Below, one piece after another: positions 23,537 to 56,673 of a DNA stretch of 64,000 nt; the first letter of the stretch is position 1, and every line of letters starts with the position of its first letter. The notes under the pieces are model-generated. The model saw only the letters and a program-made list of their open reading frames with translations. It was not told the DNA's origin and searched no databases. The position numbers and the translations under genes were made by a program. The stretch is from a virus: the IMG/VR virus record IMGVR_UViG_2919155634_000002, positions 4,411 to 68,410 of that record, one strand, 5' to 3'.

Positions 23537-23558
23537 AAAGTTCTTTTGAAAAAATACA

Positions 23559-23582: not shown

Positions 23583-23592
23583 GGAGATAAAT

Positions 23593-24161: not shown

Positions 24162-24218
24162 CCTATTCGTTTGGCGACGAACCGTGGCAGCTCCTATCTA
24201 ACACACGGAGCTACACCA

Positions 24219-24649: not shown

Positions 24650-24948
24650 GCTTGATAAGTTGGAACGGCCTTCTTCCCAAGCATGAGGCAATCAAAGAAA
24701 TGTCGGTCGATGAGCTTCGTAAAACTGCCGACTCAACGAAGGAATACGCCTGCACACTGGCGCACGGTATATCTGGCATAGGCAATTTGCTTGCGTGTAC
24801 TGCCTCGAATGGCGAAACCGGTTTGAGCGATCAAGCCGTGACTAGCGTCGGCTGGATGCTTGAAAGCATGGGTACGCTCATCAGCAACTTAGTCGATACA
24901 CAAGCAGCTGCCGAGTACCACCTGCAAGTCAAACTCCCGAGGGCTTGA
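24646..24948 (+). CDS. Hypothetical satellite protein
   Basis: GGAGG RBS, ATGA overlap. Confidence 0.65.
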   Translation: MSLISWNGLLPKHEAIKEMSVDELRKTADSTKEYACTLAHGISGIGNLLACTASNGETGLSDQAVTSVGWMLESMGTLISNLVDTQAAAEYHLQVKLPRA

Positions 24949-24950
24949 TT

Positions 24951-25358
24951 ATGAGAATCCAAAACGGTGCATTTGCGCCGACGGGATCGGTTTGCCTGGA
25001 TAAACTGCTCAACCGGTTAGAAAAAGTTAAGTCCGCTGGCGCCGACAAGTGGAAAGCCTGCTGCCCTGCACACGACGACAAACATCCGAGCTTGGCAATT
25101 AGCGAAACTTCGGAGGGCGTCGTCTTACTCAAGTGCTGGGCCGGTTGTACAACTAAAGAGATTGTCTCGGTAATTGGCCTGGAGTTGCGGGACTTATTCC
25201 CCGGCGACAAACAACCTCGGCGCGGCCCAAGTAAGGCTGCAGTTGAACATGAGCGCATGGTTTATCGGATCGGCCAATCACTCCAGCAGCAAGGTAGTTT
25301 GGCCGGTGACGACCTAGTGCGCTTCAACCTCGCCAAGCAGCGCCTGGGGGTCAAATGA
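24951..25358 (+). CDS. Primase-type Zn-binding domain protein
   Basis: CCPAHDDKHPSL...LKCWAGC (CHC2-like). Confidence 0.8.
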   Translation: MRIQNGAFAPTGSVCLDKLLNRLEKVKSAGADKWKACCPAHDDKHPSLAISETSEGVVLLKCWAGCTTKEIVSVIGLELRDLFPGDKQPRRGPSKAAVEHERMVYRIGQSLQQQGSLAGDDLVRFNLAKQRLGVK

Positions 25359-26629: not shown

Positions 26630-26922
26630 TGGCCGCGCTCGACTACCTACTGGAACGTGGATTTACCGCCAAGAAGCAAGGTATGCGGGTACGGATTTCG
26701 CCCGCGTCAAAGCTGACCGACGACGTGCGCAAGTATGTCAAAGCGCACCGGCTGGCGCTGCTAGCCGAGCTGGCGGCGAACGACGGCCTGGAGCGCCGCT
26801 GCAACTGGTCGGTGCTGGTGCCCGGGTGCCGGCCATTCACCATGATCAGCGAGCCGATCACCCGCGACGAAGCGCTGGCCGATGTTCGTGTGCGGTGGCC
26901 AGGTGCGGAGGTGGGGCCATAA
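26626..26922 (+). CDS. Small protein: TubC_N-like N-terminus fused to a WxVxVPGxxPFxM domain
   Basis: C-terminal ~40 aa align by eye with helper ORF 14350-14481. Confidence 0.7.
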   Translation: MMAALDYLLERGFTAKKQGMRVRISPASKLTDDVRKYVKAHRLALLAELAANDGLERRCNWSVLVPGCRPFTMISEPITRDEALADVRVRWPGAEVGP

Positions 26923-26981
26923 AGGCCAACCGCGAGCCAAATTACCGTCGGTAAACCGACACAGATAGCAGGCGGTCACGG

Positions 26982-27021
26982 CTCGGATTTGTTTCCGACC
27001 TGGCTCGGATTTATTTCCGAG
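26982..27021. repeat. Two helper-type iterons (TCGGA-N6-TCCGA) in the satellite
   Basis: CTCGGATTTGTTTCCGAC (26982-26999) and CTCGGATTTATTTCCGAG (27004-27021); 26999-27020 is the exact reverse complement of helper 13016-13037. Confidence 0.85.
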
Positions 27022-27157
27022 GGGGTGCTTTCCGGCAGAAAACCACACCTTGGCTTTCACAACGCAGAGGCGCCTTGATCCGAATCGGCTCATTTGGTCC
27101 GAGTCGGCTCATAGGGTCTCGTTCGGTGTAACGACACCCTCACATTGAGGAGCAAGC

Positions 27158-28447
27158 ATGACCACCAAGCACATCATCATCACTGACGCCGAGATCCGTA
27201 AGCAGGCCGGCCAGCCAGTGCGCCAGTTGCGTGACCCGCGTTACCCCGAACTGCGCTTTCGCTATTCGAGCGTGGATCGCACCCGGGGCGCCTGGCACGT
27301 TGTTGTCAGGGGCAAGTGGGGCAAGGCCGGCGATTTCCCCAGCCTGACCACCAAGGCCATGATAACTGCGCTGCCGGCCATCCTGGCCCGCCGTGCCGTA
27401 GACGCCGAGGCTACCTCGCTGACCAGCACCTGGAGTCGTACCGGTGAGCTGCTGGACTGGTACCTGGACCGCATGCTGCGCGACCGCAACTTGTCGGAGA
27501 AGCGCAAGGCCGGCGCGAAGTCGGCCATCACCTGCCACCTGACGCCCCGGCTGCATGACCTGCCGCTGGCTGATGTGAGCAAAGCCACGCTCGATCAACG
27601 CCTAATGTGGCCACTGCAGGAGCGCTACGCCTTATCGTTCGTGCGGCTGGTGTTCAACGTGCTGGCGGTGGCCGTGCGCAAGGCACACCGGCTTGGGATG
27701 ATCGAGCACAACCCCATGGGCTCGCTGCGCTTCGGGGACTTCGTGGCGGTACGGATCAAGCCTAAATCGTCACGGCTACGGGAGCGGGATTTACCCGATC
27801 TGCTGGCCAAGCTGGCGAGCTGGAGCGAGGCGCGGCCCGGTGACGCCCTGTTGGCGCTGATGATGCTTTGCCACGGCACCCGCCTGGGCGAGACGCGCAG
27901 TGCGCTGTGGCGCAATGTCGATCTGCAGGCCGGCCAGTGGTTCATACCCGCCGACGACACCAAGACCAAGCAGAACCACACCCTGCCGCTGACCCGCCAG
28001 GCCTGTGCACTGCTGAGCCGCTATCAGGCCCAGCAGATCGCCCAAGGCTACCAAGGTGCCTACCTGTTCCCATCCAGCCGGCGCGGGCCACTGGGTGCCA
28101 CGGCAGCCAGCCAAGTGTTTGCCGAATTGAGCGACCGGCAGTGGACCAGCCACGACGTGCGCAAGGTCGCCCGCACCTGCTGGATGGATCTGGGTGTTGA
28201 TTACCTGGTGGGCGAGATGCTGGTGAACCACGCCCTGCGCAACATGGACGCGACCTACATCCACACCACCGCCGAAGCCCTCAAGCGCCAAGCCCTGGAA
28301 CGCTGGCACGACCAGTTAGACCGACTCGGGTTGAACGCACTTACAGGCGAGACATACCCAAGACACGAAGTTTCGCAAAAACAGCCACAAGCCACAGACC
28401 ACGCGGCCTCTGGCGAAAACCCGGATGCATCACAGAGGAGCATGTAA
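27158..28447 (+). CDS. Second tyrosine recombinase, paralog of helper 15199-16497
   Basis: Shared LRDPRYP, HGTR(I/L)GETR, WFIPA, WTSHD(L/V)RKV, GEML(L/V)NH, TYIHT motifs. Confidence 0.88.
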   Translation: MTTKHIIITDAEIRKQAGQPVRQLRDPRYPELRFRYSSVDRTRGAWHVVVRGKWGKAGDFPSLTTKAMITALPAILARRAVDAEATSLTSTWSRTGELLDWYLDRMLRDRNLSEKRKAGAKSAITCHLTPRLHDLPLADVSKATLDQRLMWPLQERYALSFVRLVFNVLAVAVRKAHRLGMIEHNPMGSLRFGDFVAVRIKPKSSRLRERDLPDLLAKLASWSEARPGDALLALMMLCHGTRLGETRSALWRNVDLQAGQWFIPADDTKTKQNHTLPLTRQACALLSRYQAQQIAQGYQGAYLFPSSRRGPLGATAASQVFAELSDRQWTSHDVRKVARTCWMDLGVDYLVGEMLVNHALRNMDATYIHTTAEALKRQALERWHDQLDRLGLNALTGETYPRHEVSQKQPQATDHAASGENPDASQRSM

Positions 28448-28450
28448 ATC

Positions 28451-28681
28451 ATGGTCGACGTTGAGCAGGACGTTACCCAGCGCTTGGCCCAGGCCGGCGT
28501 CACACCGCTAATCGGTGGCCTGGTGCCAGAGCCAGCAACGGCGGACCTGCTGGGTTATGCACCCAGCTACTTGCGCCGCCTGGCTGCTGAGGGGCGTTCA
28601 CCCCTGCCGTTCGTGCGCCGGGGCAACCGCAGGTTCTACAAAATAGCCGACATAGTGCGCTTTGCGACGGATACCGACTGA
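28451..28681 (+). CDS. Small winged-HTH (excisionase/MerR-like) DNA-binding protein
   Basis: TADLLGYAPSYLRRL...RRGNRRFYKIADI. Confidence 0.75.
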   Translation: MVDVEQDVTQRLAQAGVTPLIGGLVPEPATADLLGYAPSYLRRLAAEGRSPLPFVRRGNRRFYKIADIVRFATDTD

Positions 28682-28762
28682 GGACGTCGAAGTTAACCGC
28701 TGACCGGGGGGTGCGTGCGCGCATAGGGTAGACGGCATCGTTTACACACCCCGGAGAACCCC

Positions 28763-29929
28763 ATGCCAGATCCCTATCAGCAGGACATGACCCAGCTGAA
28801 TCAAACGCTGCAGAACATCGGTACGCAGATCGCTGACTTCAAATCCTCCTCTGCAGAGAAACAAACCGAGTTCGGCGCCCGCCTTCAAGAAATCGAGCAG
28901 AAGATGGTGAATGTCAGCGCCCGTCGAGGCGCGAATGATGACACCGCCGACTCCAATGTCGTGACCGCCCAGGTAGTGGCCGCTGATGGTATCGCCGGTT
29001 TCCGCAACGGGATGAAGTCCACCGGCCAGATCAGTTGCAAGGTCGGCGTGCGTGCTGCGATCACCAATCCCAATAAAGGCGTCACTGGCTCGACCAGCTA
29101 CCCAACTGCCCCGCAACGTGATGGCGCCGGCATCCGCGGCATTCCGCAGCCACGGCTGAGCTTGCTGGATGTGCTGCCGATCGTGCCGGTCACCAGCGCT
29201 ACTTACGAGTTCGTTCGCCTCGACGGCTACATCAACGGCGCGGCCTACCAGAAAGAAGAAGGTGAGCAGAAGGCCGAAGGGTCGATGCCGACCAAGATGG
29301 AGCGAGCGGAGATTGCCACCATCGCCACCTGGATTCCGGCGAGCCTCCAGGTGTTGCAGGACAGTGACCAGCTTGAGGGGCAGATCAACACGCTGATGAG
29401 CGTGGGGGTTCGCCAGAAGCTGGAGGCCGAGCTCATCAACGGCGAAGGTGGACCAGGTGAGATCCTCGGATTCAAGAAGCAGGCCACCGCCGCCGGCATC
29501 ACCACCGGCAAGCCAGCTGATCGCATCGGCGCTGCCCTCACTGACCTCAAGGCCGAAGGTTGGAACCCGAACGTTATCGTGATGAACCCGCGTGACTGGT
29601 TCGCCATCGAGAGCGAGCGCGCCGAGGGCGGCGACGGTCAGTACGTTATCGGCACACCACGCGATCCAGCACCACCAAGCCTGTGGGGCACACCCGTGGT
29701 GGTCACCAACGGTATGCCACAAGGCGAAGCGTTGATCCTGGACACCTCTGTGGCAGCCCTGCTGGATCGGCAGGAGGTGACCGTGGAAGCAAGCCGTCAC
29801 GATGGCGACAACTTCAAACGCAACCTGGTCACCATTCTGGCGGAGCTGCGTGCCGGCCTGGCCGTCTTCGCGCCAAGCGCTACCCGCCTGGTAACGCTCG
29901 GTACCGTCCAGGCCAAGTCGTCCAAGTAA
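28763..29929 (+). CDS. Satellite-encoded HK97-family major capsid protein
   Basis: N-terminal coiled-coil delta domain; RLSLLDVLP, IATWIPAS, IVMNPRDW, LWGTPVVVT, FKRNLVTILAELR motifs. Confidence 0.92.
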   Translation: MPDPYQQDMTQLNQTLQNIGTQIADFKSSSAEKQTEFGARLQEIEQKMVNVSARRGANDDTADSNVVTAQVVAADGIAGFRNGMKSTGQISCKVGVRAAITNPNKGVTGSTSYPTAPQRDGAGIRGIPQPRLSLLDVLPIVPVTSATYEFVRLDGYINGAAYQKEEGEQKAEGSMPTKMERAEIATIATWIPASLQVLQDSDQLEGQINTLMSVGVRQKLEAELINGEGGPGEILGFKKQATAAGITTGKPADRIGAALTDLKAEGWNPNVIVMNPRDWFAIESERAEGGDGQYVIGTPRDPAPPSLWGTPVVVTNGMPQGEALILDTSVAALLDRQEVTVEASRHDGDNFKRNLVTILAELRAGLAVFAPSATRLVTLGTVQAKSSK

Positions 29930-30059
29930 TGCTTGGCGTGGGTCAGCTGCGAGTGCCACGGACCCAATAACCGCAGCAGTCGGAGCCCCATTTCATCCTT
30001 TCAAGGTGATCCGACACTGGCCCGCCATGCGGGCCTTTCTATTCACTCTGGAGAAGATC

Positions 30060-30257
30060 ATGCGCCATACCCACTTACCCAAGCCTGTTCAACGAGCCCT
30101 CAACCAAATCGCCCACAGTCGCGCCCTGTTGCGCCAGATGGAGGAGCGTGAGCGATTGAGCAAAGAGATCGATCGGCTGCTGGCCAGCGGCCTGAGCGCA
30201 GCAGAAGCGCTCGAGCAGATCCGATCGGCGCCGCCGTACGAAGCCCCGGACTACTGA
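30060..30257 (+). CDS. Small helical protein immediately upstream of the satellite cos
   Basis: GGAG RBS; MRHTHLPKPVQRALNQIAH... Confidence 0.7.
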   Translation: MRHTHLPKPVQRALNQIAHSRALLRQMEERERLSKEIDRLLASGLSAAEALEQIRSAPPYEAPDY

Positions 30258-30480
30258 GGGGCGGGTCGAAAGTCTAGGAGGTCCGCTGCCCTAGACCGCT
30301 CCCGACCCCACGTACAGATTTTTTTCCTTTAACAAAAAAATGTTAAAGCGACTTTAACACCCATGCCGAACGTGCATGAGCCTGGAAGCCAGTGATTCAG
30401 CGGCTTTGAGCCAAATTGAGACAGCCTGGCGGATGTTAAAAGTGTTAACCCTTTAACACCTAAAAGTTAATGCTTTAACA
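30257..30480 (+). other. Putative satellite cos site with TGTTAAA/TTTAACA repeats
   Basis: 37-bp identity to helper (30291-30327); six exact heptamers at 30328, 30341, 30353, 30434, 30452, 30474. Confidence 0.8.
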
Positions 30481-30578
30481 CCCTCTGGTAAGTGCAAAGA
30501 TCGCCAGCAGCCGGGTGTGTCTAGCTCGCCTGCCCTCGCTCTGTAATGACTAACTGCACAAATTTATGAGGTTATCCA

Positions 30579-30668
30579 ATGTTCAGTGCGATCACTTGCA
30601 CCCTCGTCGCCGAGATCTGCAAGGCCGGCTTCTGTTGTGAAACCTCCAATAATCGGAGTTGCCGATGA
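30579..30668 (+). CDS. Possible 29-aa Cys-rich leader peptide
   Basis: GAGG RBS; MFSAITCTLVAEICKAGFCCETSNNRSCR; ATGA overlap with the first gpI-like gene. Confidence 0.35.
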   Translation: MFSAITCTLVAEICKAGFCCETSNNRSCR

Positions 30669-31255
30669 AACGAAAGATCAAGCTCTACGGCGTGCTGCGC
30701 CAGCGTTTCGGCCGCCAATACATCCTCGATGTGCACACCCCGCGGGATGCCATCCAAGCGCTCTGCGAAATGGTTCCAGGCTTCGAGAAGTTCCTGCTCA
30801 CTGGGGAGGAGCGCGGCTTGGTGTTCACCGTCTTTTCCGGTAACCGGAATCTCTGCGCCGACGATCTGGATCTCAAGGGCGACGATGTGGGTGATATCCG
30901 AATAGCGCCGATCATCCAGGGCAGTAAGCAGGCAGGCGTGTTTCAGACGATCCTGGGCGCGGTTTTGATCGTCGTGGGCATCATGTACGACTGGACAGGA
31001 TCGACCTCGACCATGGGCGTGGCGATGATCGCCGGCGGTGCTGCTATGGCCGCCTCGGGCGTTGTACAGATGCTTTCACCTACGCCTAACACGGGCAGCC
31101 TGGACCGCAACGAGGACGGCAACAACCCCAGTTACGGATTCGGCGGTGCGGTGACCACCATCGCTCAGGGCAACCCCTATCCAGTGCTGTACGGCGAGCG
31201 AGAGATCGGTGGCGCCGTCGAATCTGGCGGCATCTACACACAAGATCAGCTGTAG
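30665..31255 (+). CDS. Tail assembly protein I (lambda gpI-like), copy A
   Basis: IKLYGVLRQRFGR ubiquitin-like N-terminus, IRIAPIIQGSK, Gly-rich hydrophobic stretch, SYGFGG...GNPYPVLYGEREIGG. Confidence 0.88.
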   Translation: MKRKIKLYGVLRQRFGRQYILDVHTPRDAIQALCEMVPGFEKFLLTGEERGLVFTVFSGNRNLCADDLDLKGDDVGDIRIAPIIQGSKQAGVFQTILGAVLIVVGIMYDWTGSTSTMGVAMIAGGAAMAASGVVQMLSPTPNTGSLDRNEDGNNPSYGFGGAVTTIAQGNPYPVLYGEREIGGAVESGGIYTQDQL

Positions 31256-31266
31256 AGGAGGCATAC

Positions 31267-31629
31267 ATGACCACCGAAATTTCGAAGTCATCCTTTCAGC
31301 AGCGATTCGCTCAAGCATGCAAATCGGAGCATTTCACTCTGCATGAGGGCGGCCCCTCTTATTCGCTTTGGAACGTCCAGCACGTAAAGGACGGTCGCCA
31401 CGCACTCCTTGACGGCGTTTTTTTCACAGAGGAGGAGGCGCAGATCTCCGCCGATCTTCTCCGAGGCACCATGCGTGGGGCGCGAGCATACAAGGTCATC
31501 TATGCCCCTACATGGAGGCCCGACCCGGCCCGAGAGGCCGTTATACGCCTTGAGGCGTTCCAGTGCCGCGAGATGCTTGCACGGCGCCTGGGCGTACAAC
31601 ATATAACCCGCGAACAGGAGAATTCCTGA
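31267..31629 (+). CDS. Hypothetical protein between the two gpI-like genes
   Basis: GAGGAGG RBS; TGATG coupling to the next gene. Confidence 0.7.
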   Translation: MTTEISKSSFQQRFAQACKSEHFTLHEGGPSYSLWNVQHVKDGRHALLDGVFFTEEEAQISADLLRGTMRGARAYKVIYAPTWRPDPAREAVIRLEAFQCREMLARRLGVQHITREQENS

Positions 31630-32243
31630 TGGCTGCAGTCGTTCGAAGCAATCCGACCCTGACCACCGTCTACCTGTCCGGCCCCCTGATCCGGAAGTTT
31701 TTCCGCAAGAAGGATTACCTGCTGGACAGCCAGAATACCTGGGAGGTGTTTCGAGCCTTGAAGGCAACGCTGGCAGGATTCGAGCAAGAGATTAAGCGCC
31801 TCGAGGCCATGGGCATGAGGTTTGCGATATTCCGCAATCGAAAGAATGTGGGAGAAGACGACTTCGAGCGCGGCGGCGCCACTGAGGTACGTATTGTTCC
31901 TGTGATTGGAGGCAGCAAGCGCGGTGGGGGCTTGCAAACAGTCCTAGGGGTAGTGCTCATCGCTCTCGCGTACTTCAACCCGTTTGGGTACTTCTCAGGG
32001 CCGGCTGTTAGCGCTATGTACGCCGCAGGCGCGGCGAACGTAGCTGGCGGCGTGATGCAGATGCTAAGCCCGCAGGCACGCGGCTTGTCGCAGAGCGGTG
32101 CACCGGAGAACCTGCCGTCCTACGCCTTCGGTAGCGCCAAGAACACCACCGCCAGCGGTAACCCCGTCCCGATCTGCATAGGTGACCGCCGCTGGGGCGG
32201 AGCTATCATCTCGGCATCGATCGAGGCGCAGGACAAGGCTTAA
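31629..32243 (+). CDS. Tail assembly protein I (lambda gpI-like), copy B
   Basis: TVYLSGPLIRKF, VRIVPVIGGSK, SYAFGSAKNT...GNPVPICIGDRRWGG. Confidence 0.88.
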   Translation: MAAVVRSNPTLTTVYLSGPLIRKFFRKKDYLLDSQNTWEVFRALKATLAGFEQEIKRLEAMGMRFAIFRNRKNVGEDDFERGGATEVRIVPVIGGSKRGGGLQTVLGVVLIALAYFNPFGYFSGPAVSAMYAAGAANVAGGVMQMLSPQARGLSQSGAPENLPSYAFGSAKNTTASGNPVPICIGDRRWGGAIISASIEAQDKA

Positions 32244-32669
32244 AGTGAGCCAGGGTCACTTTGAATACTCCAATTCCGGTATGTGGGGGTGTCCTCAGTA
32301 TTGAGGATACCCCGTTTTGCACTCCCGGCCTCATCTTACCAATCCCGGAGCATAGGAGTGTCTAGGAAAAAAAGAGCATGACTTACACAGAAAACATTGG
32401 CCAGAAAATCTCAACGATTGAATGGCGTCGAGTGGAGTTCATTATGAGTAACAAAGTCATCCGCCGGCGTCAGAGCAACAGGGCTGGACCTGCTGGATTG
32501 GCTTTATGGCGCGATAACGGCATCGGTGCCGTAACGGTCATTGGTGTACTCCATTTACGCTTGTCTACTGTAATAGGTGAGTGTCAGCTGAGATTGGATT
32601 GACCTCGTTTGGCCGAGCCGAAATAGAGGAAAGCGCTAGCGTAGGCGGTGATGCCTCACCGCCTTCAAG

Positions 32670-34298
32670 TCAAAGATTATATCGCCATGATTTACTCAAT
32701 CCTTTAATTCCCGGAAGATTTAGAAAAGGTGAGGGCGTACTGTCGTATATTACGTCATGCTTACCTATGCGCTTGGTTGTGTGCACAAGAACGCAGAGAT
32801 TTTTGGCTCTTGTTATGCCAACATAGTGTAGATTTAGATCTTGCTCCCAACTTTTATAGATCTTTTTGCTAGTGATGGGGTCGTTGCTTGGGAAGTTCAT
32901 TACATACTCGATAAGGTCGAGGTGGAGAACAATTTCAAATTCTAAACCCTTGGATTTATGGAGCGTCATGCATTGTACTTCGTTATGGCTTGCAGGCAGA
33001 TACTGCTGTAATTGCTCTTTATCTAGAATAACCTTTTTTAGTGCGGCAATCTCTTCAGGTTTAGCTTCTAAGCCAAGCAGTCTTTGTGAGGCAGTGACCA
33101 AGCTCGATTCTAAAAGGCAATCATCAATGGCTCGAAATTTTTTAATGATAGATCTTCTGTCGATTAATTGTCGTTTTTTCAAGTCACCATGATCGGGAAG
33201 TATTTCTAAGACCTCATCAACGGTGTGTGCAGGACTGTAGCGGTAAGTTAGGATCTGCCCCCAGAGCTCTGTCGTACGTGTCCCTAGTTCCTCAATAGCA
33301 TTATCAGTATGGATTCGCCTTGGGATAGTCAGCTTCTCAGCAAGATGCTTGAGTGTTGCGTTGCCCCTGGCCAGGATAGCGATTTGGGATGGTGGGATCG
33401 TGCTCCATTTTGCTAGCAGAGCTTCTATTAGCCTGTTGAGTTTGAACGCTCCTTCGCGTTGATCGCCTTCCATTTCACAGTGCCATACTCGAATGTCATT
33501 GTTTTCGAGGAGGATAAATCGATCATTGAAAAGTCTGTTTGCATAATTTGAAATGGACGGGTGACATCTATGGTTTCGAGCAATCGTTCGATGCGTGAAT
33601 TTTGGATTTCTAATCAGATCTTTGAGGTGTTCAGGGCTTGATCCTCTCCACCCAAATATCGATTGCTGCAGGTCACCGACTGCTATGCCGGTTATTCCCA
33701 GTGATTCCATGATCAAAAAAAGCGAGTGCTGTTCGTAAGAAGTGTCTTGATATTCATCCATATACACTGAGGTGTATCTGGCTTTGAGGAATTTTGAACA
33801 AGCGGCTGATTGCTTAATGATATAGTTAGCTAGGCTTGCTATTGCTGGAAAGTATAACGTTCCAGCTGCAAGGAGCTCTAAGAGTACATCGAGGTTCTGT
33901 CCCTCAGTGTAGCTCTCTTCTTCTATGAACTGGCAGGCAAGTTTTTTCTCAGCCTCAGTCAGGTCGGCAGGATATTTAGGAGTTAGGTCTACTGCTGAAC
34001 TAGCGAATACATGCCTAATGAACGGATGGATGATTTCACTCAGACAAAATGAATCTATCGTCCCAAAAAAGCTAGACTTTACATCAGTTGAATTTTTTTT
34101 GCATCTGTCAGCTAGTTCTCTGCTTGCCTTTCTGGTGAAGGTTATGGCTATGACACCCTGATGCTTCTTAAGAGTGTCTAGCTCAATTCTGATCTTCTCA
34201 CTCATAACTGCTGTTTTACCACTTCCAGGGCACGCAGTTATGATCAAGGAGCCTTGCGGCTTGATCGCATCTAACTGTTCGTTAGTGAACTCTATCAT
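32670..34298 (-). CDS. gajB: UvrD/Rep-like helicase, Gabija GajB
   Basis: ACPGSGKT, ITFTRKA, DEYQD, VGDLQQSIFGWRG, TLHKSKGLEF, YVGITRAK; coupled to the OLD nuclease. Confidence 0.83.
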   Translation of the reverse strand: MIEFTNEQLDAIKPQGSLIITACPGSGKTAVMSEKIRIELDTLKKHQGVIAITFTRKASRELADRCKKNSTDVKSSFFGTIDSFCLSEIIHPFIRHVFASSAVDLTPKYPADLTEAEKKLACQFIEEESYTEGQNLDVLLELLAAGTLYFPAIASLANYIIKQSAACSKFLKARYTSVYMDEYQDTSYEQHSLFLIMESLGITGIAVGDLQQSIFGWRGSSPEHLKDLIRNPKFTHRTIARNHRCHPSISNYANRLFNDRFILLENNDIRVWHCEMEGDQREGAFKLNRLIEALLAKWSTIPPSQIAILARGNATLKHLAEKLTIPRRIHTDNAIEELGTRTTELWGQILTYRYSPAHTVDEVLEILPDHGDLKKRQLIDRRSIIKKFRAIDDCLLESSLVTASQRLLGLEAKPEEIAALKKVILDKEQLQQYLPASHNEVQCMTLHKSKGLEFEIVLHLDLIEYVMNFPSNDPITSKKIYKSWEQDLNLHYVGITRAKNLCVLVHTTKRIGKHDVIYDSTPSPFLNLPGIKGLSKSWRYNL

Positions 34299-36007
34299 AC
34301 ACTACCCTCGGCTACTTCGCGGCTATGGATCAGCGGTTGAGCCAAGAAGCCGCCACCAATTTTACCTAGAGCCTGACTATGCTTGGCTAAAAAAGAGCGC
34401 ATGCGTATGGCTTTGCTGTTTTGTAGGTAGGTAATCGCTTCAGCTATTGTTGTCTTATTGCTAAAGATTAGGAGCTCAGGACTTAATTCGTCGCCCATAT
34501 CATTTTCGAGATCGATCTTAGATAAATACACGCCCTTAGGATTTAGGATATCACAAGCAGCCTTCCAATAACCGTCTCTATGAACGGTGCTATGATCAGA
34601 GTTTTCAGGAAGATGTGGTACAGGCGGCAAATTAACCAGATTGCGTCCTCTATTTATGCCTGCGAGTTGTTTGTATTTAACATTTTTAAGTTCAATGGAT
34701 GATACGTCGTTGTCTGTCTTGGCGATCCAGGATATTTCCATGGCATCTAAGATTTTTGTGTAAACTGAAAACTGTACACCGTCAACGCTAAGAATTGATA
34801 TGTTGTAATAGTCTAAATCTATTCCAAGTTGTTTGGATAACTCGTTATAGAACAAAACTTCTGATGGTCCTTCAACCAGTAGCACGCATTTGGCAAAGAA
34901 AGCCTCTGCAGGTAGGACGCTCATTCGATAGCCTAAGTTGTCCCAGTGCTCGGAGATACATTCTGAACAGCCTTGGCTTGCCGCGTAACTTCCGTGGTTG
35001 GACTTTTTGATGTGTACCAAGTCAGCGGGAGTAAAACGCGCGGTTATTTGGGGCGAGTGTGTGGTAATGATGGTTTGCCCGCTAAGATCCTCAATTAGAT
35101 AGTTTGCTAATCTACGTTGCTGGTGGGGGTGCAGGTGAGCTTCCGGTTCTTCGATGCAGTAAAAAACAACTTCACTCGCCGGATCGTGCTCGTACTGGCT
35201 ACGAGCCTTCCATAGTGCCATCAAAATCTGATTATTGCGACCATCCCCACCAAGTGAAATCTTGGCCCCTGCCGTGCTTGCGCTGAGCTTCAAGTTGTCA
35301 ATAAATTGCTGTGTTTGTATTGCACCCGAATCTAGGAATACAGAGTACCCGGTTAGGTCGTTGGAAAGCTTGCTGAGCTCTGTGTTTACTGCTGTTGTTG
35401 CATTTGCAACATAGTTTAGCTGGCGGACTTGCTCATTGATGATATTTAGATTGGTTTCGATTTTTTCGAGCTGTTTTTGATCGAATTCACCTTGTTCTGG
35501 TGTCCGCAATTCTTGCGAGAGTTTCAATAGATGTTTTTTTTCAAGTGATACAAATTTTTCTAGATCACGACTCGATTTTACATACTTAAGATTTAAATAC
35601 TTGAGATAGAACCTGCTGGATATTTCATTTAGTTGGTCGGCTTTAGGGCCGCATAAGATCCTATAGCTCAAGTCCTTTCTGAGGGCTTCATATCTAAGTA
35701 TGCATTTGCCATCCCCCGATACGTTGCCGCGGAGGATTGAAAGTACTGCATCCTGGCTTACCTCTCCGAAGTGAATGGTAATGCACAGGGCCTCACTTTG
35801 CTGGCCATCATTTGAAATATGAAAGTCGGACTCTTTTGGTTCGATTTCACTTTCGGATAAAGACTTATCTAGGAGCAACCTTAGCGCATAGATCAAGTTT
35901 GTCTTGCCGCAGTCGTTGCTTCCAATGACTAAGGTTTTTTGGTTGAAATTGACTATGGCATTCTTGTAATTTTTGTATCCGCTGACTTCTAGCTTGTCGA
36001 TTTTCAT
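34295..36007 (-). CDS. gajA: OLD-family ABC-ATPase/TOPRIM nuclease, Gabija GajA
   Basis: IGSNDCGKT, EEPEAHLHPHQQ, VEGPSE, KTDND; AT-rich. Confidence 0.85.
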   Translation of the reverse strand: MKIDKLEVSGYKNYKNAIVNFNQKTLVIGSNDCGKTNLIYALRLLLDKSLSESEIEPKESDFHISNDGQQSEALCITIHFGEVSQDAVLSILRGNVSGDGKCILRYEALRKDLSYRILCGPKADQLNEISSRFYLKYLNLKYVKSSRDLEKFVSLEKKHLLKLSQELRTPEQGEFDQKQLEKIETNLNIINEQVRQLNYVANATTAVNTELSKLSNDLTGYSVFLDSGAIQTQQFIDNLKLSASTAGAKISLGGDGRNNQILMALWKARSQYEHDPASEVVFYCIEEPEAHLHPHQQRRLANYLIEDLSGQTIITTHSPQITARFTPADLVHIKKSNHGSYAASQGCSECISEHWDNLGYRMSVLPAEAFFAKCVLLVEGPSEVLFYNELSKQLGIDLDYYNISILSVDGVQFSVYTKILDAMEISWIAKTDNDVSSIELKNVKYKQLAGINRGRNLVNLPPVPHLPENSDHSTVHRDGYWKAACDILNPKGVYLSKIDLENDMGDELSPELLIFSNKTTIAEAITYLQNSKAIRMRSFLAKHSQALGKIGGGFLAQPLIHSREVAEGSV

Positions 36008-36240
36008 CCGAAATACGTTCCATGTTTGTGTTTGATGCTCAGGGTGTCAGGTAGTCAACCAGGCGCGGAGGCCGGTTGCCTGTGTCCTGCCACGGAATCA
36101 CGCCGCAGCTCGTACACGTAGCATCGCCGTAGTGGCAGTTTGCTGCAAGCTGATCTAAGGGGTATCTCTGGGGGTACGCCGTTGGATACCACTCCCCGTA
36201 GCGTCCATTTCCCTTGCTTCTCTGGGGTCGATTGACATTT

Positions 36241-36250
36241 GCAAGAAGAA
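36241..36250 (+). repeat. attR core (GCAAGAAGAA)
   Basis: Junction to terL codons K-K-N-G-K-S-T; tandem (A/G)GGGGTA arm-type repeats at 36158-36177. Confidence 0.8.
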
Positions 36251-48427: not shown

Positions 48428-49012
48428 ATGGCGGAGGAATGGCCCGAGGACCTTGAGCCCACTGAGGTCACCTGGGGCGTTGTTTACAACAATCGGGCTT
48501 TCACCTCTTCACTCAACAATGCCCAGCAAATCGCCTCGCACCCTGGCGCCTACTGGGTCTGCACCCTGACATTTGGTGTGCTGTATGAGGAAGATGAACG
48601 AGAACTGACATCGCTCCTTGGCCGTCTGCAGGGGATGTTCGGAACCGTCAACGTACCTTCGATCACCAGGGTAAGGACTGACGACATAGGATCGCCAGTC
48701 GTGGCAGCTGCTGTTGCGCAATCCACCAGCTTGCAGTTACGCAACATGCGGCCGGGCATCAGGGTTTTCAGCCGAGGTGATCACATCACCATTCTGGGCG
48801 AGATGTTTGAGGTGGTGGAGCACGCCGCTACGGATGGCAGCGGTTCTGCAGTGGTTCGCGTCAACAAGCGAGTGCGCAGAGGTTTCGCACCCGGCAGCCC
48901 GGTTGAGTATCGAAACCCCTACTGCGAGATGAGGAGAGCGGACGACACCAATCAATGGACTGTTCAGCCGGTGATATCGAATGGCAGCTACCAATTTCGA
49001 GAGGCTTTCTGA
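48428..49012 (+). CDS. Distal tail protein (putative)
   Basis: First gene after the tape measure. Confidence 0.7.
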   Translation: MAEEWPEDLEPTEVTWGVVYNNRAFTSSLNNAQQIASHPGAYWVCTLTFGVLYEEDERELTSLLGRLQGMFGTVNVPSITRVRTDDIGSPVVAAAVAQSTSLQLRNMRPGIRVFSRGDHITILGEMFEVVEHAATDGSGSAVVRVNKRVRRGFAPGSPVEYRNPYCEMRRADDTNQWTVQPVISNGSYQFREAF

Positions 49013-49614
49013 TGCCCACATCATTTCCATTCAGTCAGAGCGTGGTGGACATCATCGCATCTGGACGATTCATGACCGTTTACGCCTGCCAACTCGACTT
49101 CGCTGATGGACCTGTATATGCCCATACCGGCACTGGTGAGTTGGTGATCGACGGGATTACGTATCTCGGTGTTGGTCAATTTGGTCAGGTAGGCCAATCA
49201 CAAGAGAGCGACAACTCAGGCTCACCTATGGCTGTTGACCTAACGCTCAACGGCCTGGATGCCTACATCATCAGCGAAACAAACATTCGGGGCTGTCGCG
49301 GACGTTCTGGGAAACTGTTGTTCGTCGTTTTCGACGAAGACGGCAACTACGCCGTTGACATACTTTTCTCAGGGCGTATGGACGCAGCCACCTTCTCGTA
49401 TGCGGGTAACGGCGAGGACGGCAACAAAATCACTGTGCCGATCGTGGACCGCATGGCCGAATGGAGCCGTACCGGTACCGAGCGCTTCACTGACGAGAAT
49501 CATCGTGCACGCCACCAGGGAGACCGGTTTTTCTACGCCGTCGCCCAGCTGTCCGAGTGGCCCATCTACTGGGGGTCGAGCAAGGACGCCCCGACCTTTG
49601 CCTATGAGAAATAG
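49012..49614 (+). CDS. Tail tip / minor tail protein
   Basis: TGATG coupling; position. Confidence 0.7.
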   Translation: MPTSFPFSQSVVDIIASGRFMTVYACQLDFADGPVYAHTGTGELVIDGITYLGVGQFGQVGQSQESDNSGSPMAVDLTLNGLDAYIISETNIRGCRGRSGKLLFVVFDEDGNYAVDILFSGRMDAATFSYAGNGEDGNKITVPIVDRMAEWSRTGTERFTDENHRARHQGDRFFYAVAQLSEWPIYWGSSKDAPTFAYEK

Positions 49615-49616
49615 CT

Positions 49617-50015
49617 ATGCGCCACAGAGATTGGACGATACGTCTCAGTGAAGTGATCAAGGCCGCCAGAGAGCGGCCTTTTTCATGGGGCGAGTTTGAC
49701 TGCTGCCTGTTTGCAGCGGATTGCGCTGTTGCGGTGTGCGGAACCGACCCCGCTCAAGCATACCGGGGCACCTACAAGACTGAAGCCGGTGCAAAGCGGG
49801 CTTTACGGAAGACTCACGGCAGCCTGGAGGCGGCCTGGGATGCGTGTTTTGTCCGGGTGTCCCCTGCGTTCATCCAGCGCGGAGACATCGCGATGTATGA
49901 GGCGCCAGGTGGCAAGTCCATGGCGGTCTTCTGGGCGAGCGAATTTTGGGCGACGACCGAAGATGGCGTGCACCGCGTGGTGTGTGAGCCGACAGCTGTT
50001 TGGAGGGTGGAATAG
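49617..50015 (+). CDS. NlpC/P60-like tail protein
   Basis: FSWGEFDCCLFAADC, RGDIA. Confidence 0.75.
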   Translation: MRHRDWTIRLSEVIKAARERPFSWGEFDCCLFAADCAVAVCGTDPAQAYRGTYKTEAGAKRALRKTHGSLEAAWDACFVRVSPAFIQRGDIAMYEAPGGKSMAVFWASEFWATTEDGVHRVVCEPTAVWRVE

Positions 50016-53000
50016 ATGAGCGGTGGCGTAAAGAAACTTGCTCAGGTTGTCGTCGGCGCCGTCATTGGCTTCGTTCAGGGTGGACCCGTAGGTGCAGTGA
50101 TCGGAGCGGGTCTAGCATTCTACGCAGCTGAGCAACAGGAAAAGCTCAACACGAAGTCGCCGCTGCGCGACAACGAACCGTCTGCTCAGACCGTTCGTTC
50201 TTCCAAGGCGCCTGTTCGGTTCATCCTCGGGCGCGTCAGCACTGGCGGGGTCCTGGTCTGGGCACAGGAGGAGCGCGGGGCGCAAACGACCGGCGAATGG
50301 CTACACCTGGTATATGTGCTCTGTGAAGGCGCCATTGATGAGCTGGAGTACATCTACCTCGGTGAAGAGCTCATCGGCAGCTATGGTGCAGATGCGTCGT
50401 ATGAGCTGGTCGTCAATCCGACCCAGGTGAACACTTTCCTCAAGGAAAACTGTCCTGATTGGAAAGACACACAAATCGGCCGCGGGCTGTCGTATGTACG
50501 GATCTCCCTGCGTTACAGCGCAGAAAAATTCCCGTCCGGCATTCCCGATGCGCGCTTTGTCGTGCGCGGGCGAAATGACATTTTTGATCCCCGGACGGGC
50601 AGATCTGGCTGGACCGAGAACACGGCTCTGCACCTGCTGTGGTTTCTCCGCACGCGGTGCGGTGTGCCTGATGATGAGATCGTGTTTGAGACATTCGCGA
50701 GCGGTGCCAACGTCTGTAACGAGTCGGTGCAAAACCCGGACGGTAGCTCAAGCCCTCGGTACCGCAGCGGCTGCGTGATCGGCGCCGATGAGCAGCGCAC
50801 TAACGTATTGCAGAAGCTCGAGACGGCCTGTGCGGGCAAGCTGATCAGAGTCGGCGGCCGCTGGATGTTCCAAGCAGGAGCCTATTACGGGCCATATGAC
50901 TTCGAGATCACCGAAGACATGGTAATTGGGACAATCACCGGCAACACCGAAGCGACCAATGACGCCGCCATCAACACGATCCGCGGCACGTTCATTGACC
51001 CCCAGCAGTCCTGGACCGAGACCGACTATCCCGAGGTCGCTGTTGCTCAATGGGTTGAGGAAGACGGGGGCGAGGCAGCGGAAACGCTGTCATTCTCCTA
51101 TGTCAGCGACCCATATCAGGCTCAGCGCTTGGCAAACATCGAGCTCCGTCGGCGTCGGTCGGGTGGCGCGCTGAATATCCCGCTCAACTTGGCTGGCTAC
51201 AACTGCCGGCCTGGTCGGGCTGTGCGCGTTAACTTGCCATCACTGAACATCCTCGGCGAGTTCATGGTTACCAACTGGTCCATGGGTACCAGCGAGGGCT
51301 GTACGGCGTCGGTGCAGGCCTATGAGGGGCAAGCCCTACAACCCTATCGGCTTTATCAAGCTGCCCGCTGGCGGTCTTGGGAGCCCAACGAATCTCCGCT
51401 GGGATGTAGAGGACACAGCAGAGATAAGTCAGGGCGTGTTGAGCTGGGATCGGCCTGCAGGGATCGTTTCGGGCTTCGCTGTAACTGTGCGACAAGCGGG
51501 TGCCGCGGTGCAGGCGCTGCAAGTGCCAGAGACCACGACCCGGATGCCGATCTCTGGCCTGACATCCGGCAGCTATACCATGGGCGTGGCTGCCTTGGGC
51601 CCGCTCGCACGCTCAGGCGAAGCGACCATCACGGTTGATGTGAATGGCCCGCCAATGCCTGAAACCTGCGCTGTGCAGGCGACGATCGATACGATCACTC
51701 TTATCCCCGGCAATACGCTGCACGGCCTCAACGGCGGCACGTATGAATATTTCTGGTCGCCAGATCCAGCCGCCACGCAGGGCGAGTTCCTCGGGCGAGG
51801 GCTGAGCATCACCCACACCGGCCTGTCATTCGCCAAAAGCTATGCCTACTTCGTCCGCTCCAAGAATGCCTACGGCGTGAGCGCCTTCCTCAAGGTTGTC
51901 GCAGCGACCTCTATGGATGTTGGAGCCATCCTGGAAGGCATCAAGGGCAAGATCACCGATAGCGAGCTGGGCAAGGAGCTCACTAGCCGCATCGACCTGA
52001 TCGACAAGAACGGTCCTGGCTCGGTGAACGAGCGGGTGGGGACGGCCAAGACCGAGCTGGCCAAACAGATCAGCGACGTGAACAACGCTCTTGGCACCGT
52101 GAAGGGCAATCTCGAGCAGCAAATCACCGAAGTGGGTTCGGCCGTATCTTCTGCAAAAACAGATCTGGAAAAACAGATTGCAGCCGTTTCGGCTTTGGCC
52201 GGCTCTCTGCCTTATCGCAAGGACAAAGCATACAGCGTAGGTCAGAGCGCCTTGGGCAGCGATGGCAAGCTCTACCAAGCACTTAAAGCGGTACCGCTGA
52301 ACACGCCACCGCCGAATGCTGGCTACTGGACCGACATCGGTCAGGCTGTTGTAACGGCCAATGGATTATCTGCACGCGTGCAGGAAATTGGCCTAAGCGT
52401 CGAAGACCTAGGCGAGTCGTTCTCAGCACAAGCTGATCAGATCACTGGCCTGAAGACGACCTTGGATACCACTGCAGATAACGCTTCGGCGGCGCAGAAA
52501 GCTGCCCAGGACGCGGCAACGCTGGCCGGTGGCAAAGGCAAAGTCATTGTTCAATCAGCAGCGCCCGCAGTCGCGGACCGTCTTGCGCAGAACCTGTGGA
52601 TCGATACTACTGGGAGTGCGAACACGCCCAAGCGTTGGTCCGGTTCGGCTTGGGTTGCGGTTACCGACAAAGTAGCAACAGATGCGGCAGCTGCAGCGAA
52701 GTCAGCGCTTGACCAGGTGGGCAAGAAAGCCGATGCCACTTTAGTGAATAGCTTGAAGACGCGAGTCGACGATGCCGAGGGCGTTCTTTCTTCCCAGGCC
52801 ACAAAGCTGGATGGCATGCAGACCAGCATCGATGGCAAGGCCAGCTCGGAGGCCCTGCAACAGGTCAGCAGCCAGGTCAGTGAAACTGAAAAGAGAAATG
52901 ATGAACAGGACAGGCAGCTCTTCTCACAAAGTCAGGCCCTGACTTCGCTGAATGACAGCTTGATCGGGAAAGCGAATGCCTCGGCGGTGCAAGCCCTGGA

Positions 53001-56000
53001 TAATCGGGTCACCGATACGGAGAACGCCCTTACCAGCCAAAGCAGTGACATCACTCAGCTGAAAAACAGCGTGGGCGCGGCTCAGCCATTCGTGGCGGGT
53101 AGGGCGTGGGAGTTCACCGGCTCTACTCAGGGATGGGCGGCGATGACGGCCGGTTCAACCTTCACGCCTGGGCCGCTGTTTGCGACCGCGTTCAAGTCCA
53201 TCAGCCTGCAATGCAGTTTTTCCCCCTTTGTCGCAGGGGCTGAAAACCCCTATCTGCGTATTCGCTTGCGTCGGCGCAATACCACACGGTCAACGGCCGC
53301 AATGTATTGGGCCAATGAGGATGGGGGGCTTGCCGAGGCTCGACGATTCAACTGGCCTATCAACACGTCGAGCGGCGACTGGCAGGACATTGAGCTCGAC
53401 CTCTCTGGCCACGCTGGCTGGAATGCAAAGAAGATCTCGACCATCCGCCTGGACATGTTGAACTCCAGTGACACCAGTGGAGAAATTGACATCGCCTACA
53501 TCGCGGTCGGCAGACGGTCAGTGTCTGCCTCAGCCCAGGCTGTTTCGAGCTTGAGCAATGTGGTGACTGAGGCTGGAGAGAAATTGACCTCGCAAGGCCA
53601 GTCCATCACCAGCCTGCAGGGTGATCTCCGTACCACAAACGACAACGTCACAGCAGCCCAGCGAGCGGCACAAAACGCCGCGAATACGGCAGGTGCCAAG
53701 GGTGAGGTGATCTATGGCTCGGCCGCTCCAGCGGCTGACAAGCGTCTGCCTCAAAATCTCTGGATTGATACTACAGGAGGTGCGAACTCGCCCAAGCGCT
53801 GGTCTGGCACGGCCTGGCAGGCTGTGACGGACAAGGTTGCAGTCGATGCTGCTGCAGCCGCGGCCAATGCCCTGAACAAGGTAGAAAGCAAGGCAGATGC
53901 GTCGACCGTTGATACCTTGGTCAACAAAGTTGACAAGCAGGGGGAGGCCATTACGGCTAGTGGCGAGGCCATCACAGGCATCAACGCTTCGCTGACCCAG
54001 GTGGGCGGAGAAAACCTGCTGTTCAACCCGTCGTTCGATATTGCTTCGGCCAGCAACCCTGGGCTGGCAGACGGCTGGGGTTGGCGCAAAACAGCAACTG
54101 TGATCGTGATCCCGACGCTTCGAGATGCTGATCTGGGTGCTGAAGGCAAATGTCAACGACTGGACATCTCCGGGCTAACGGCGGGCTCAGGTTCGACCTA
54201 CGTGGATTTCGTACCCTCAGCCGCCAGCCCGGATGTGCGCCCGCCGGTTTACGAAGGGGTAATCAATACCGCTTCGGTCTTCGTGCGAGGCAACACCGGG
54301 CTGATGGCGCAGATTTACCTGCAGTACAAGGATGCAGCTGGCGCAACGCTGAGCACAGATGGACCCGCTAATCTCGTGCTCACTCCGTCCTACCAGCGTC
54401 TGTCTTTGACCTCAAATCCAGCGCCGGCGAATGCCGTCAAGATGGATGTATTGTTCAGGCTTCGTTCATCGCCTGGCTCGAGTCTCACTGGTGGATTCGT
54501 GGACCTGGACAAGGCGCAGCTGGAGCTGGGAAAGATTGCCACTGGGTGGCGCGACAATGGCAAGGCCAACTCTGCGATAGCGGCTGCCAACGCATCGGCT
54601 ACTACCGCTCTAGCTGGGCGGGTGTTGAAGACTGAGGAGGGGCTAACGAGCGCGTCCAACCAGCTGACCCAGTTGGACAACAGCCTTGGGGATGTTGGCG
54701 GAGAAAACCTCTTCTACAACCCTGGGTTTACCAAAGCTGCCAGTTCGAACGGCTCGGCTGAAGGTTGGGAAACCGAAGGTCCAGTGACGACAACTGACAC
54801 CCTGGTCACCTCATGGATGAACTCGGGCGAAAAAGCGCAGAGGATCGTTGCGCCAGGCCTGACCAACAGCGCTCAATACAAGTCACTTCGACCGTCAGCG
54901 GCCAGGCGCATCAAGGTAAGCAGCGGTCAGGCTGTGACAGCCTCGGTCTATGCCCGGAAAAGTGACAGCGATATTGGAATGCGTGTGTTCACCCAATGGA
55001 TCAATACCGCCGGCGCGGTAATCAGCGCACCTGCCTCAGAATTGATTCCGTTGACGATCGCTGGCGCTCGGGTGGCATTTTCGGCTGTCGCCCCATCGGG
55101 GGCTAGCGAGGCCTATGTTTATTTCCGGCTGTATGCCATGACGGCTACCGCTACGAATGGAACGGTGGAGCTTGCCAGGCCACAGGCAGAGTATGGAACA
55201 CGTGCCACAGGGTGGAAGGATAACGGTCAAGTCAATGCCGCCAACAATGCTGCCACTTCATCGGCTGTGAGCGGCTTGTCTTCCGCGGTTGATCAGCATG
55301 GGAAAGACCTGACCAGTGTGTCGGGACGCACCCTTACGTTGGAAAACACTGTCAACAGTACGGCCAACGGATTGGCAACCAAGGCGTCGGCCTCGGCTGT
55401 CGAGACATTGGCCAACCGCGTGACCGATGTGGAGGGTGCGAATACCACGCAGTCTGGGAGCATCACCCAACTCACCAACACCCTTGATTCGATTCAAGGC
55501 GTGCTCGGAGCTTCTGGCCTTGATCCGGCACCGAATTGTCTCTGGCAATTCGATACCAGCACAGAGGGCTGGGTGGCGGCAGGTGCAACACTGGCGCAGG
55601 GCGCGGGGTTCATCAAGATCACTGCGACCGGTTCGGATCCCCAGCTGCAGAGCGGCACGGCTGCGACGTTGGCTATCGCAGGCAGCTTGTACAGCCGCCT
55701 GCGTGCACGCATCACCCGCCGAGCCGGTGCGGTTACCGACTGGGATGGTCAGCTGTTCTATCAGACATCTGGTCACGGATTCGCGAGTAGCTACAGAGCT
55801 GTCGCGGCCAACCCCAATCTGGCAGTAGGCCAGTCGGCAGTGGTTGAGTGGGACATGGCCAACCTTGCGGCAGGTGGCGCCGACTGGCTGAGCAGCACCA
55901 TCACCCGCCTTCGCCTGGACCTGGGGGCTACTAGTGGTGGGGCGTTCGATGTGGACTGGATTGCAGTTGGCAGGGTTGCGCCTGCGGCCTCCAGTCGCGC

Positions 56001-56673
56001 TGTGGAGTCACTGACCTCTGAAGTCACTCAGAACGGAAAAGACCTGAGCGCCCAGGCCAAGCAGCTTCTTGATCTGAACACGTCGGTGGGCGATGCCAAC
56101 GCCGCGATACAGAACGAAGCCAAGACCCGCTCTGATGCTGTCGGTTCATTGAGCCAGCAGATTCAGAACACCCAGTCTTCCGTAGGTGAGACCAAGGCCG
56201 CCGTGCAGCAGGTTAGCAAGGCCCAGGCCGACTTGGACGGGAAGGTCAACGCTACCTGGTCGGTCAAGCTGGGGCTCACCTCGGGAGGCAGCTATTACGC
56301 CACGGGCTTCGGCCTAGGCCTCGAGAACCAAGGCGGGACCTTCCAATCCAGCTTCGTCGTGTTGGCAAACCGGTTCTCGGTGCTGAACCCCGTAGGAGAG
56401 GGGCTCGTCAACATCTTCACGGCGGAAAACGGTCAGGTCGTTATGAACGACGCTCTGATTTCAAAGCTCACCGTGCAGCGGGCAATTGTCGGTAGCTCGA
56501 TCAACTCGTCCGAACTGGCCAACGATGGGACACCAATCATGCGAATGGACTTCGCCTCGGGCACGCTGATCCTGCTCAACAAGGCCGCAACGGCCTACAC
56601 CGTTTACAACAGGAGGGGTATCGACATGGTCATCAACGGTGTCCGTCGTATCCGCATGGGCGAGTGGGATTGA
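50016..56673 (+). pseudogene. Tail tip / central fibre protein (gpJ-like), split by a frameshift near 51327
   Basis: Frame 50016 encodes the hub up to ...VQAYE, then becomes non-protein-like; frame 51322 carries GKPYNPIGFIKLP..., FN3-like, fibre repeats and the C-terminal domain. Confidence 0.75.

Follow-up and report, generated by a model that had tools for sequence, protein, structure and literature searches.

What does a pair of tail-tip genes do in a phage satellite? Such elements are usually defined by their lack of tail genes, and the piracy known from them concerns capsid size, packaging and late transcription. The pair studied here lies in a 14.1-kb satellite that is inserted in a Pseudomonas siphophage prophage with an HK97-type head; this prophage, the helper, occupies the stretch of 64,000 nucleotides that was analyzed (positions 4,411 to 68,410 of the IMG/VR record IMGVR_UViG_2919155634_000002; hereafter the window). 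Both genes encode relatives of the tail protein gpI of bacteriophage lambda, and they flank a gene named here X, in the order gpI-1, X, gpI-2. In solved tails gpI is not merely an assembly factor: as a trimer it plugs the lumen of the distal tip, where it binds J (HDII, HDII-insertion and FNIII) via beta-sheet augmentation and props the C-terminus of the tape measure protein (PMC10721106, PMC11101478), and its hydrophobic helices H1 and H2 have been proposed to enter the outer membrane upon tail opening (PMC11101478). From the analyses presented below we conclude that X and gpI form a conserved and widespread module, placed at the 3' end of the late region of satellites and never in a tail operon, and we tentatively read the satellite gpIs as plug subunits for the tails of helper phages.

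The gpI-1 gene (30665..31255, plus strand) codes for a tail-tip plug protein of the lambda gpI family of 196 aa, and gpI-2 (31629..32243, plus strand), the X-linked copy, for a member of the same family of 204 aa. Both match phrog_32, the PHROG family of tail assembly proteins, over positions 3-200 of 203, with E values of 5.4e-68 for gpI-1 (residues 3-197) and 3.4e-60 for gpI-2 (residues 32-225 of the query). Against solved chains, gpI-1 was aligned with the lambda chain 8IYK_I (E 1.2e-20, residues 4-195) and with 25vf_9 (E 7e-51), and gpI-2 with the same two chains (E 1e-12, residues 10-204, and E 2e-45, respectively); the matches of both proteins take in the J-binding C-terminus. The two copies are 37% identical to each other, and the view of a first-pass annotation of this DNA, that the locus holds two full-length, divergent gpI-like open reading frames (ORFs), is therefore upheld. 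The start that it gave, 30579, falls in non-coding or spurious-ORF sequence; gpI-1 most likely begins at the ATG at 30665, which has a GGAG 6 nt upstream and yields a protein of 196 aa, as in its relatives. The model of the N-terminal ubiquitin-like domain (PF06805) scored 22.6 bits in gpI-1 (E 1.5e-4), below the gathering cut-off of 23.8, and the Pfam scan gave no match to it in gpI-2. Because this domain aligns with that of lambda gpI and of the phage relatives, the shortfall reflects the limited sensitivity of the model and not the absence of the domain. In an alignment with the gpIs of lambda and of Pseudomonas phages both satellite copies keep every feature, i.e. the N-terminal ubiquitin-like domain, the GSK-x-G linker, the two hydrophobic helices, the GGVxQMLSP motif, and the C-terminal J-binding strands (PSYxFG...GNPVP...GG). 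The placement between K and J in a tail-tip operon, which is typical of gpI, is not found for the satellite copies. None of the satellite ORFs that were scanned is a homolog of K, L, M, J or the tape measure gene, confirming for these ORFs that the satellite has no other tail genes.

Gene X (31267..31629, plus strand) is preceded by a GAGGAGG ribosome-binding site and encodes a conserved, satellite-specific partner of gpI of 120 aa. It is separated from gpI-1 by an 11-nt spacer, and its TGA stop codon overlaps the ATG of gpI-2 at 31629 (TGATG), so that the two gpI copies are indeed coupled through X, as had been noticed before. X did not match any family in Pfam, PHROG, NCBIfam or PADLOC. Its AlphaFold2 model is confident (pLDDT 83) and had no significant match in the PDB; in the AlphaFold database it retrieved its own unnamed family and, weakly, DUF2188, and an atlas feature search with X gave scores below 0.85. 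Profile-profile alignment of X with K or I detected no relation, and the hidden Markov model (HMM) of X did not match any of the phage K-I-J loci. The family is small and narrow, with 23 clusters among 1.84 billion representatives, none of which shows a fusion of X to another domain; its distant members likewise precede gpI.

A search with the X alignment recovered 40 loci, from 39 Pseudomonas species and one Janthinobacterium, and gpI is directly downstream of X in 39 of the 40. The number of gpI copies varies from one to three per element: six loci have the order X-gpI-gpI, the lineage of the window has gpI-X-gpI, and a satellite of P. parafulva carries a third gpI (L012:6920-7561, the same as G001:C29:53607-54185; phrog_32 E 8e-44) that is full-length, very divergent and devoid of the GSK linker motif. 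The loci represent three backbones, which carry (a) an AAA_25 helicase, a recombinase and a capsid gene, (b) Toprim and DUF927 proteins, or (c) a DUF5681 protein and a 280-aa protein; within 6 kb of X, no homolog of K, L, M, J or the tape measure gene was found in any of the 40. The late-region gene upstream of X, X itself and gpI are tightly packed in the other backbones, with start and stop codons that touch or overlap. The segment 26716-32243 of the window is approximately 90% identical at the nucleotide level to a P. parafulva satellite (L001), and the shared block stops exactly at the stop codon of gpI-2, beyond which the cargo of the two elements differs.

X and gpI were looked for in 301 species genomes that sample the genus evenly, and were present in 31 and 117 of them, respectively. 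Thirty of the 31 genomes with X have gpI, adjoining X wherever coordinates were listed. When 40 gpIs were taken at random from genomes without X, 38 adjoined J and the other two were in X-less satellites (L110 and L120), one gpI directly after a 277-aa late-region protein and the other adjoining an integrase gene. X was seen once without gpI, followed by proteins of 488 and 810 aa (L002/L050:6001-6300), and once upstream of the gene for a non-gpI protein of 218 aa (L172:4017-5017). The literature searched contained neither a link of satellites with gpI nor a tail-tip subunit encoded by a satellite, and the X-gpI set is a so far undescribed satellite module. As a separate observation, a conserved lipoprotein of about 143 aa is encoded after gpI in at least 16 satellite loci (L044:7017-7448, L172:6666-7097, L173:6057-6482, and others); it has no Pfam match and may be an entry-exclusion protein.

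The ratio of nonsynonymous to synonymous substitution rates (dN/dS, omega) was compared between the window, L001 and L008, at dS values of 0.1-0.56. The values obtained were 0.06-0.13 for gpI-1, 0.11-0.18 for X and 0.05 for gpI-2, similar to those of two other genes of the satellite, capsid (not above 0.09) and recombinase (0.08-0.16). With omega between 0.05 and 0.18 in the three genes of the module, passive decay is excluded. In a gpI tree that included an unbiased phage sample, the satellite gpIs are scattered among those of phages in at least six groups; parsimony counts nine changes of context, well-supported branches force at least six of them, and there is one satellite-only clade of 24. 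On this tree the gpI slot has been refilled from phages at least six times. The gpI-1 protein is nested among phage gpIs as the sister of that of phage locus L003 (support 98, 91-94% identity), and is a recent capture from a phage of the helper family; the relatives of gpI-2 at 90-100% identity are all in related satellites.

The tail-tip cassette of the helper (48428..56673, plus strand) includes a distal tail protein (phrog_1302), members of phrog_2048 and DUF6950, and a J homolog in two ORFs, without a separate gpI. Since the two satellite copies are the only matches to phrog_32 in a six-frame scan of the complete 76-kb provirus record, the helper lacks a gpI gene of its own; this earlier claim thus holds for this particular prophage, but not for its sibling phages, which carry gpI. 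A gpI-like stretch had also been pointed out in the helper tip. The N-terminus of the helper J (product of 50016-51638) does contain, in residues 8-81, a Gly-rich hydrophobic segment and KAPVRFILGRVSTGG, in the same order as in the C-terminal half of gpI, but the similarity is weak (hhalign E 0.003, probability 10%), and neither the HMM comparison of gpI with this N-terminus nor a BLASTP search with gpI-1 was significant. A plug built into the N-terminus of the helper J is possible. The two J ORFs, 50016-51638 and 51322-56673, overlap by 316 nt in different frames, an arrangement that may be due to two genuine genes, to programmed frameshifting, or to a break, which would leave the helper with a defective tail.

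The three genes of the module are located right after the cos of the satellite, as previously described, which is an exact 37-nt copy (30291..30327) of the core of the helper cos region and forms a direct repeat with helper positions 21241-21277. Between this core and gpI-1 there are TTTAACA/TGTTAAA repeats (30326..30480), putative terminase-binding sites, and the repeat families D2 and D17 are common to these and to the terS region of the helper; the satellite therefore carries the helper packaging site as an exact core plus shared heptamer repeats. The same 37-nt core is present in 21 IMG/VR contigs, and ten proviruses with it, each of at least 39 kb, were examined for gpI. Four have a tip of the type found in L003, and their gpI shares 83-85% identity with gpI-1; in three the tip is of a second type, whose gpI is 64-65% identical to gpI-2; and three are without gpI, one of them being only 58% complete; the J N-terminal protein of the helper was not found in these last three. 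The two satellite copies therefore mirror the two gpI types of the candidate helper pool, in agreement with the proposal that two variants would widen the target range, here over both gpI types present among phages with the exact cos core. The L003 phage and the helper share tail tube (100% identity), terminator (99%) and a protein of 100 aa encoded downstream (100%), and their J proteins show 62-69% identity over the C-terminal two thirds; at 6130-8646 of L003, however, a lambda-type M-L-K-I set and a J N-terminus replace the content of helper positions 48428-51638. A near-identical shaft with another tip indicates that the helper family swaps tip cassettes. Regarding the J-binding C-terminus, that of gpI-1 is 96-98% identical to the gpIs of L003 and of the cos-sharing proviruses, and that of gpI-2 is 87-89% identical to its tree neighbors L126 and L136; the ubiquitin-like domain diverges more than this part.

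Two further observations concern gpI genes outside satellites. At least 12 of the 301 genomes have tandem divergent gpI pairs (M-L-K-I-I'-J; L096-L103), which may belong to prophages or to F-type tailocin clusters, and the eight X-less pairs that were fetched are all M-L-K-I-I'-J tail modules. In addition, Pseudomonas phages commonly have additional genes, 1-2 kb in all, between K and I (L088:2013-2405, L089:972-1454, and many of L104-L143), including genes for lipoproteins with lipobox signal peptides; this interval, just before gene I, appears to be a hotspot for morons.

Over the other readings, and with slightly less than even confidence, we favor that the satellite gpIs are working plug subunits matched to the tail tips of the helpers. 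The gpI slot of satellites was filled repeatedly from the tail-tip cassettes of helper-type phages; according to this proposal, the gpIs would be made together with the late proteins of the satellite, and would join the tip complex of helper-built tails through their conserved C-terminal J-binding strands. The satellite would in this way supply or replace the plug subunit of the tails that it steals, the two copies covering two helper tip types, and with the present gpI-less helper its gpIs would be idle. The benefits could be to secure the supply of the plug, to alter DNA release, or to bypass entry blocks in helper lysogens. The first-pass annotation had proposed dominant-negative decoys aimed at invading lambda-type phages, or adaptors that would let satellite capsids use the tails of other phages. 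Defective decoys are not what the proteins look like, with all gpI motifs kept; given the 96-98% identity of its C-terminus to the helper-family gpI, gpI-1 should fit helper-family tails rather than poison them, and the likelier targets are the satellite's own helper pool. An adaptor role at the head-tail joint is excluded by the location of gpI in solved tails, in the lumen of the distal tip and far from that joint (PMC10721106, PMC11101478).

Several facts weigh against the proposal that these are working plugs. A helper with its own gpI has no obvious need of a second supply, and the helper pool as used here is defined solely by the identity of the 37-nt cos core. A second satellite of this family, in P. 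capeferrum WCS358 (L013/L055; L013:11476-12351), adjoins the C-terminal terL fragment of a prophage that shares 84-97% identity with this helper in the head and tail shaft, and in that genome gpI is confined to the satellite; both embedded satellites that were checked, this one and that of the window, are thus in gpI-less prophages or genomes. At least 19 of the 31 genomes with X are likewise without gpI outside the satellite, so the module is often carried where no matching tail is encoded; genomes with the module and those lacking it have phage gpI at much the same frequency (32%). Backbones with core proteins at 92-96% identity differ strongly in the module, with no more than 65% identity in X and 47-56% in gpI, and the module, always present, behaves as an exchangeable cassette. 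Furthermore, it borders variable defense cargo, which fits a role in conflict or defense too, and satellites and prophages are known to carry tail-assembly-blocking defenses (Tab, PMC10884400; Tai, PMC11364771).

A broader interpretation, which we consider possible but rather doubtful, is that X-gpI is a dedicated satellite device acting on the tail tip, either a mimic that cripples competing or helper tails, or the satellite's own plug for stolen tails. In the mimic version, the copy of a structural subunit would be swapped cassette-wise and would track the tip types of phages; in the re-equipping version, satellite particles would enter cells, for instance helper lysogens, that exclude the helper. 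If such a device exists, it would be an undescribed layer of the conflict between satellites and phages.

It is unlikely, though conceivable, that the module serves for interference with phages or helpers, in which case the satellite gpIs would enter lambda-type tip complexes and leave the tails non-functional or stop their initiation; gpI-less helper tips would be immune, and the swapping of cassettes would track the diversity of phage tips. Such a role would agree with the tail-assembly blockers known from prophages, phage-inducible chromosomal islands (PICIs) and P4-like satellites, including those at a hotspot near cos (PMC10884400, PMC11364771), with the variable defense cargo that the module abuts (Gabija here; nSTAND, AAA_15/21 and FRG elsewhere), with one to three paralogs per element, with a gpI that is highly variable in near-identical backbones and repeatedly replaced, and with the occurrence of the module in gpI-less genomes and helpers. 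However, no defective signature was found, all the motifs being intact, and a gpI-1 with a C-terminus so close to that of the helper family should complement. A satellite that poisons the tails of cos-sharing phages would also lose the tails that it uses itself. Divergent I-I' pairs are natural in working M-L-K-I-I'-J modules, so mixed gpI types need not be harmful. In addition, the genes are translationally coupled to late-region genes and are not separate morons expressed in lysogeny, and PADLOC gave no match for X or gpI, in a version (2.0, 2023) that predates Tai and Tab.

Superinfection exclusion at the step of DNA entry is improbable in our view. Here gpI made by the lysogen would insert its two hydrophobic helices into the envelope and disturb the channel formed by incoming gpI and the tape measure protein, the lipoprotein encoded after gpI serving the same block. 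The proposed insertion of H1 and H2 into the outer membrane (PMC11101478) and the conservation of these helices in the satellite copies are consistent with this, as are the lipoprotein gene in at least 16 satellite loci and the lipoprotein morons that adjoin gene I in phages. Nonetheless, neither a signal peptide nor another export signal was found on gpI, nor a promoter that would suggest expression in the lysogen; the best-conserved part is the J-binding C-terminus and not the helices, and blocking helper-type phages would leave the satellite without helpers.

Equally improbable is a neutral passenger, a functionless by-product of the capture of helper late genes by Gram-negative satellites. 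This capture is documented, as are extra helper-derived integrases in late zones (Tommasini, Mageeney & Williams 2023, PMC10111431), and the satellite of the window has both a paralog of a helper-type recombinase and a recently captured gpI-1; against this stand an omega of 0.05-0.18 at dS 0.2-0.56, the retention of the module in three backbones and about one tenth of the sampled species genomes, and the fact that gene I alone was captured, repeatedly, beside X. Finally, a two-gene abortive module, in which X would keep gpI inactive until K (a JAB/NlpC peptidase) or tip assembly frees its membrane-damaging hydrophobic part, would agree with the strict linkage and translational coupling of X and gpI, the position of X in the place of phage K and the succession of a ubiquitin-like N-terminal domain and a hydrophobic segment in gpI, but it is purely inferential and the least probable of all, X being unrelated to K or I, with an unmatched fold, and each of the two being found without the other (X in L050 and, before a non-gpI gene, in L172; gpI in L110 and L120).

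The remaining features of the element are those of a satellite. It extends from 22104 to 36251 (plus strand), from attL GCAAAAAGAAT to attR GCAAGAAGAAC, within the Walker A codons of the helper terL, which is split: its N-terminal 93 codons end at 22120 (...LISKKN), and it resumes near 36240 with KKNGKST. The helper terS is at 21297-21842, and the helper genes from portal through tail fiber at 37815-57839. The att pattern GCAARAAGAAY occurs only twice, at 22104 and 36241. Contigs of three metatranscriptome runs from two studies join 22108 to 36246, skipping 14137 nt; they represent an intact terL, from a related satellite-free phage or from a site after excision, and an uninterrupted terL site therefore exists in nature. 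The four metatranscriptome runs considered over 22000-36500 contain only low-depth contigs of relatives.

The gene order starts with a P4-type integrase, an AlpA-type excisionase, a primase and an AAA_25 helicase, continues with a second tyrosine recombinase, a lone capsid gene, an 83-aa gene and the cos copy, and ends with the TTTAACA repeats, gpI-1, X, gpI-2 and a low-GC Gabija pair on the opposite strand. The element thus has an integrase, an AlpA-type excisionase and replication genes of its own, is inserted co-oriented in a late gene of the helper, and holds no terminase, portal or tail shaft gene between its att sites. The HK97-type major capsid gene (28763..29929, plus strand; PF05065 E 2e-37) is in the same conserved late module. 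The second recombinase (27158-28447) is a paralog of the recombinase in the early region of the helper (15199-16497); it is 91-97% conserved across type A satellites, under purifying selection, and the published origin of extra late-zone integrases of PICIs from their helpers fits it. The presence of two integrase-like genes would suggest that two elements inserted in tandem, but this was rejected given that the att pattern occurs only twice and that the second recombinase is a paralog of a helper gene. The Gabija GajB/GajA defense cargo (32670..36007, minus strand; PADLOC E 2.8e-183 for GajB and 2.7e-236 for GajA) consists of GajA, with an OLD-type ATPase/TOPRIM, and GajB, a UvrD-type helicase, and the Pfam domains agree; in related satellites the cargo at this position differs (nSTAND, AAA_15/21, FRG). 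The 430-nt gap between gpI-2 and gajB contains a 74-aa ORF (32378-32602) with no family match.

The plug gates the release of DNA and binds J, the host-recognition protein, and it is carried systematically by three satellite backbones; these findings suggest that satellites intervene at the tail tip too, and the three-gene system is concrete enough to be tested in laboratory strains.

The comparison with known systems helps to place the module. Lambda gpI (PF06805, phrog_32; PDB 8IYK/8IYL/8K35/8XCG/9E7M) has full-length homology to the satellite copies and the same domain layout; unlike it, these copies are two and divergent, K, L, M, J and the tape measure gene are absent from their vicinity, and X, not K, is upstream. 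The M-L-K-I-I'-J modules of Pseudomonas resemble the satellites in that two divergent gpI paralogs are side by side, as in the satellites with X-gpI-gpI; however, those pairs are inside complete tip operons, between K and J, whereas the copies of the window are separated by X and come from two different lineages of phage gpI. As with Ccm of SaPIbov5 and further helper structural proteins of which satellites encode copies, a homolog of a helper virion protein is kept by the satellite and may be used in helper-driven assembly, and the satellite of the window also has a lone HK97-type capsid gene; the difference is that Ccm acts on capsid size. Tai and Tab recall the module: they are found in prophages, PICIs and P4-like satellites, partly at a hotspot near cos, and act at the tail tip or at the tape measure step, with Tai escape mutations mapping to J, the partner of gpI; in contrast, they are single proteins expressed in lysogeny, with paired counter-defenses, and homology to gpI is not described in either paper (PMC11364771, PMC10884400).

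Another known system is the dynamic late zone of Gram-negative and helper-embedded PICIs, which holds genes of the helper prophage, among them an additional integrase of helper type; insertion of satellites into terminase genes was already described in the same study, in which satellites are recognized by absent tail genes (Phage_tail_L, Phage_min_tail), and which covers Enterobacterales and relatives but neither Pseudomonas nor gene I (PMC10111431). Compared with that capture of late genes, in the satellites analyzed here a single tail gene was captured repeatedly beside a conserved satellite gene and is under selection: it is late-zone capture turned into a conserved two-part module.

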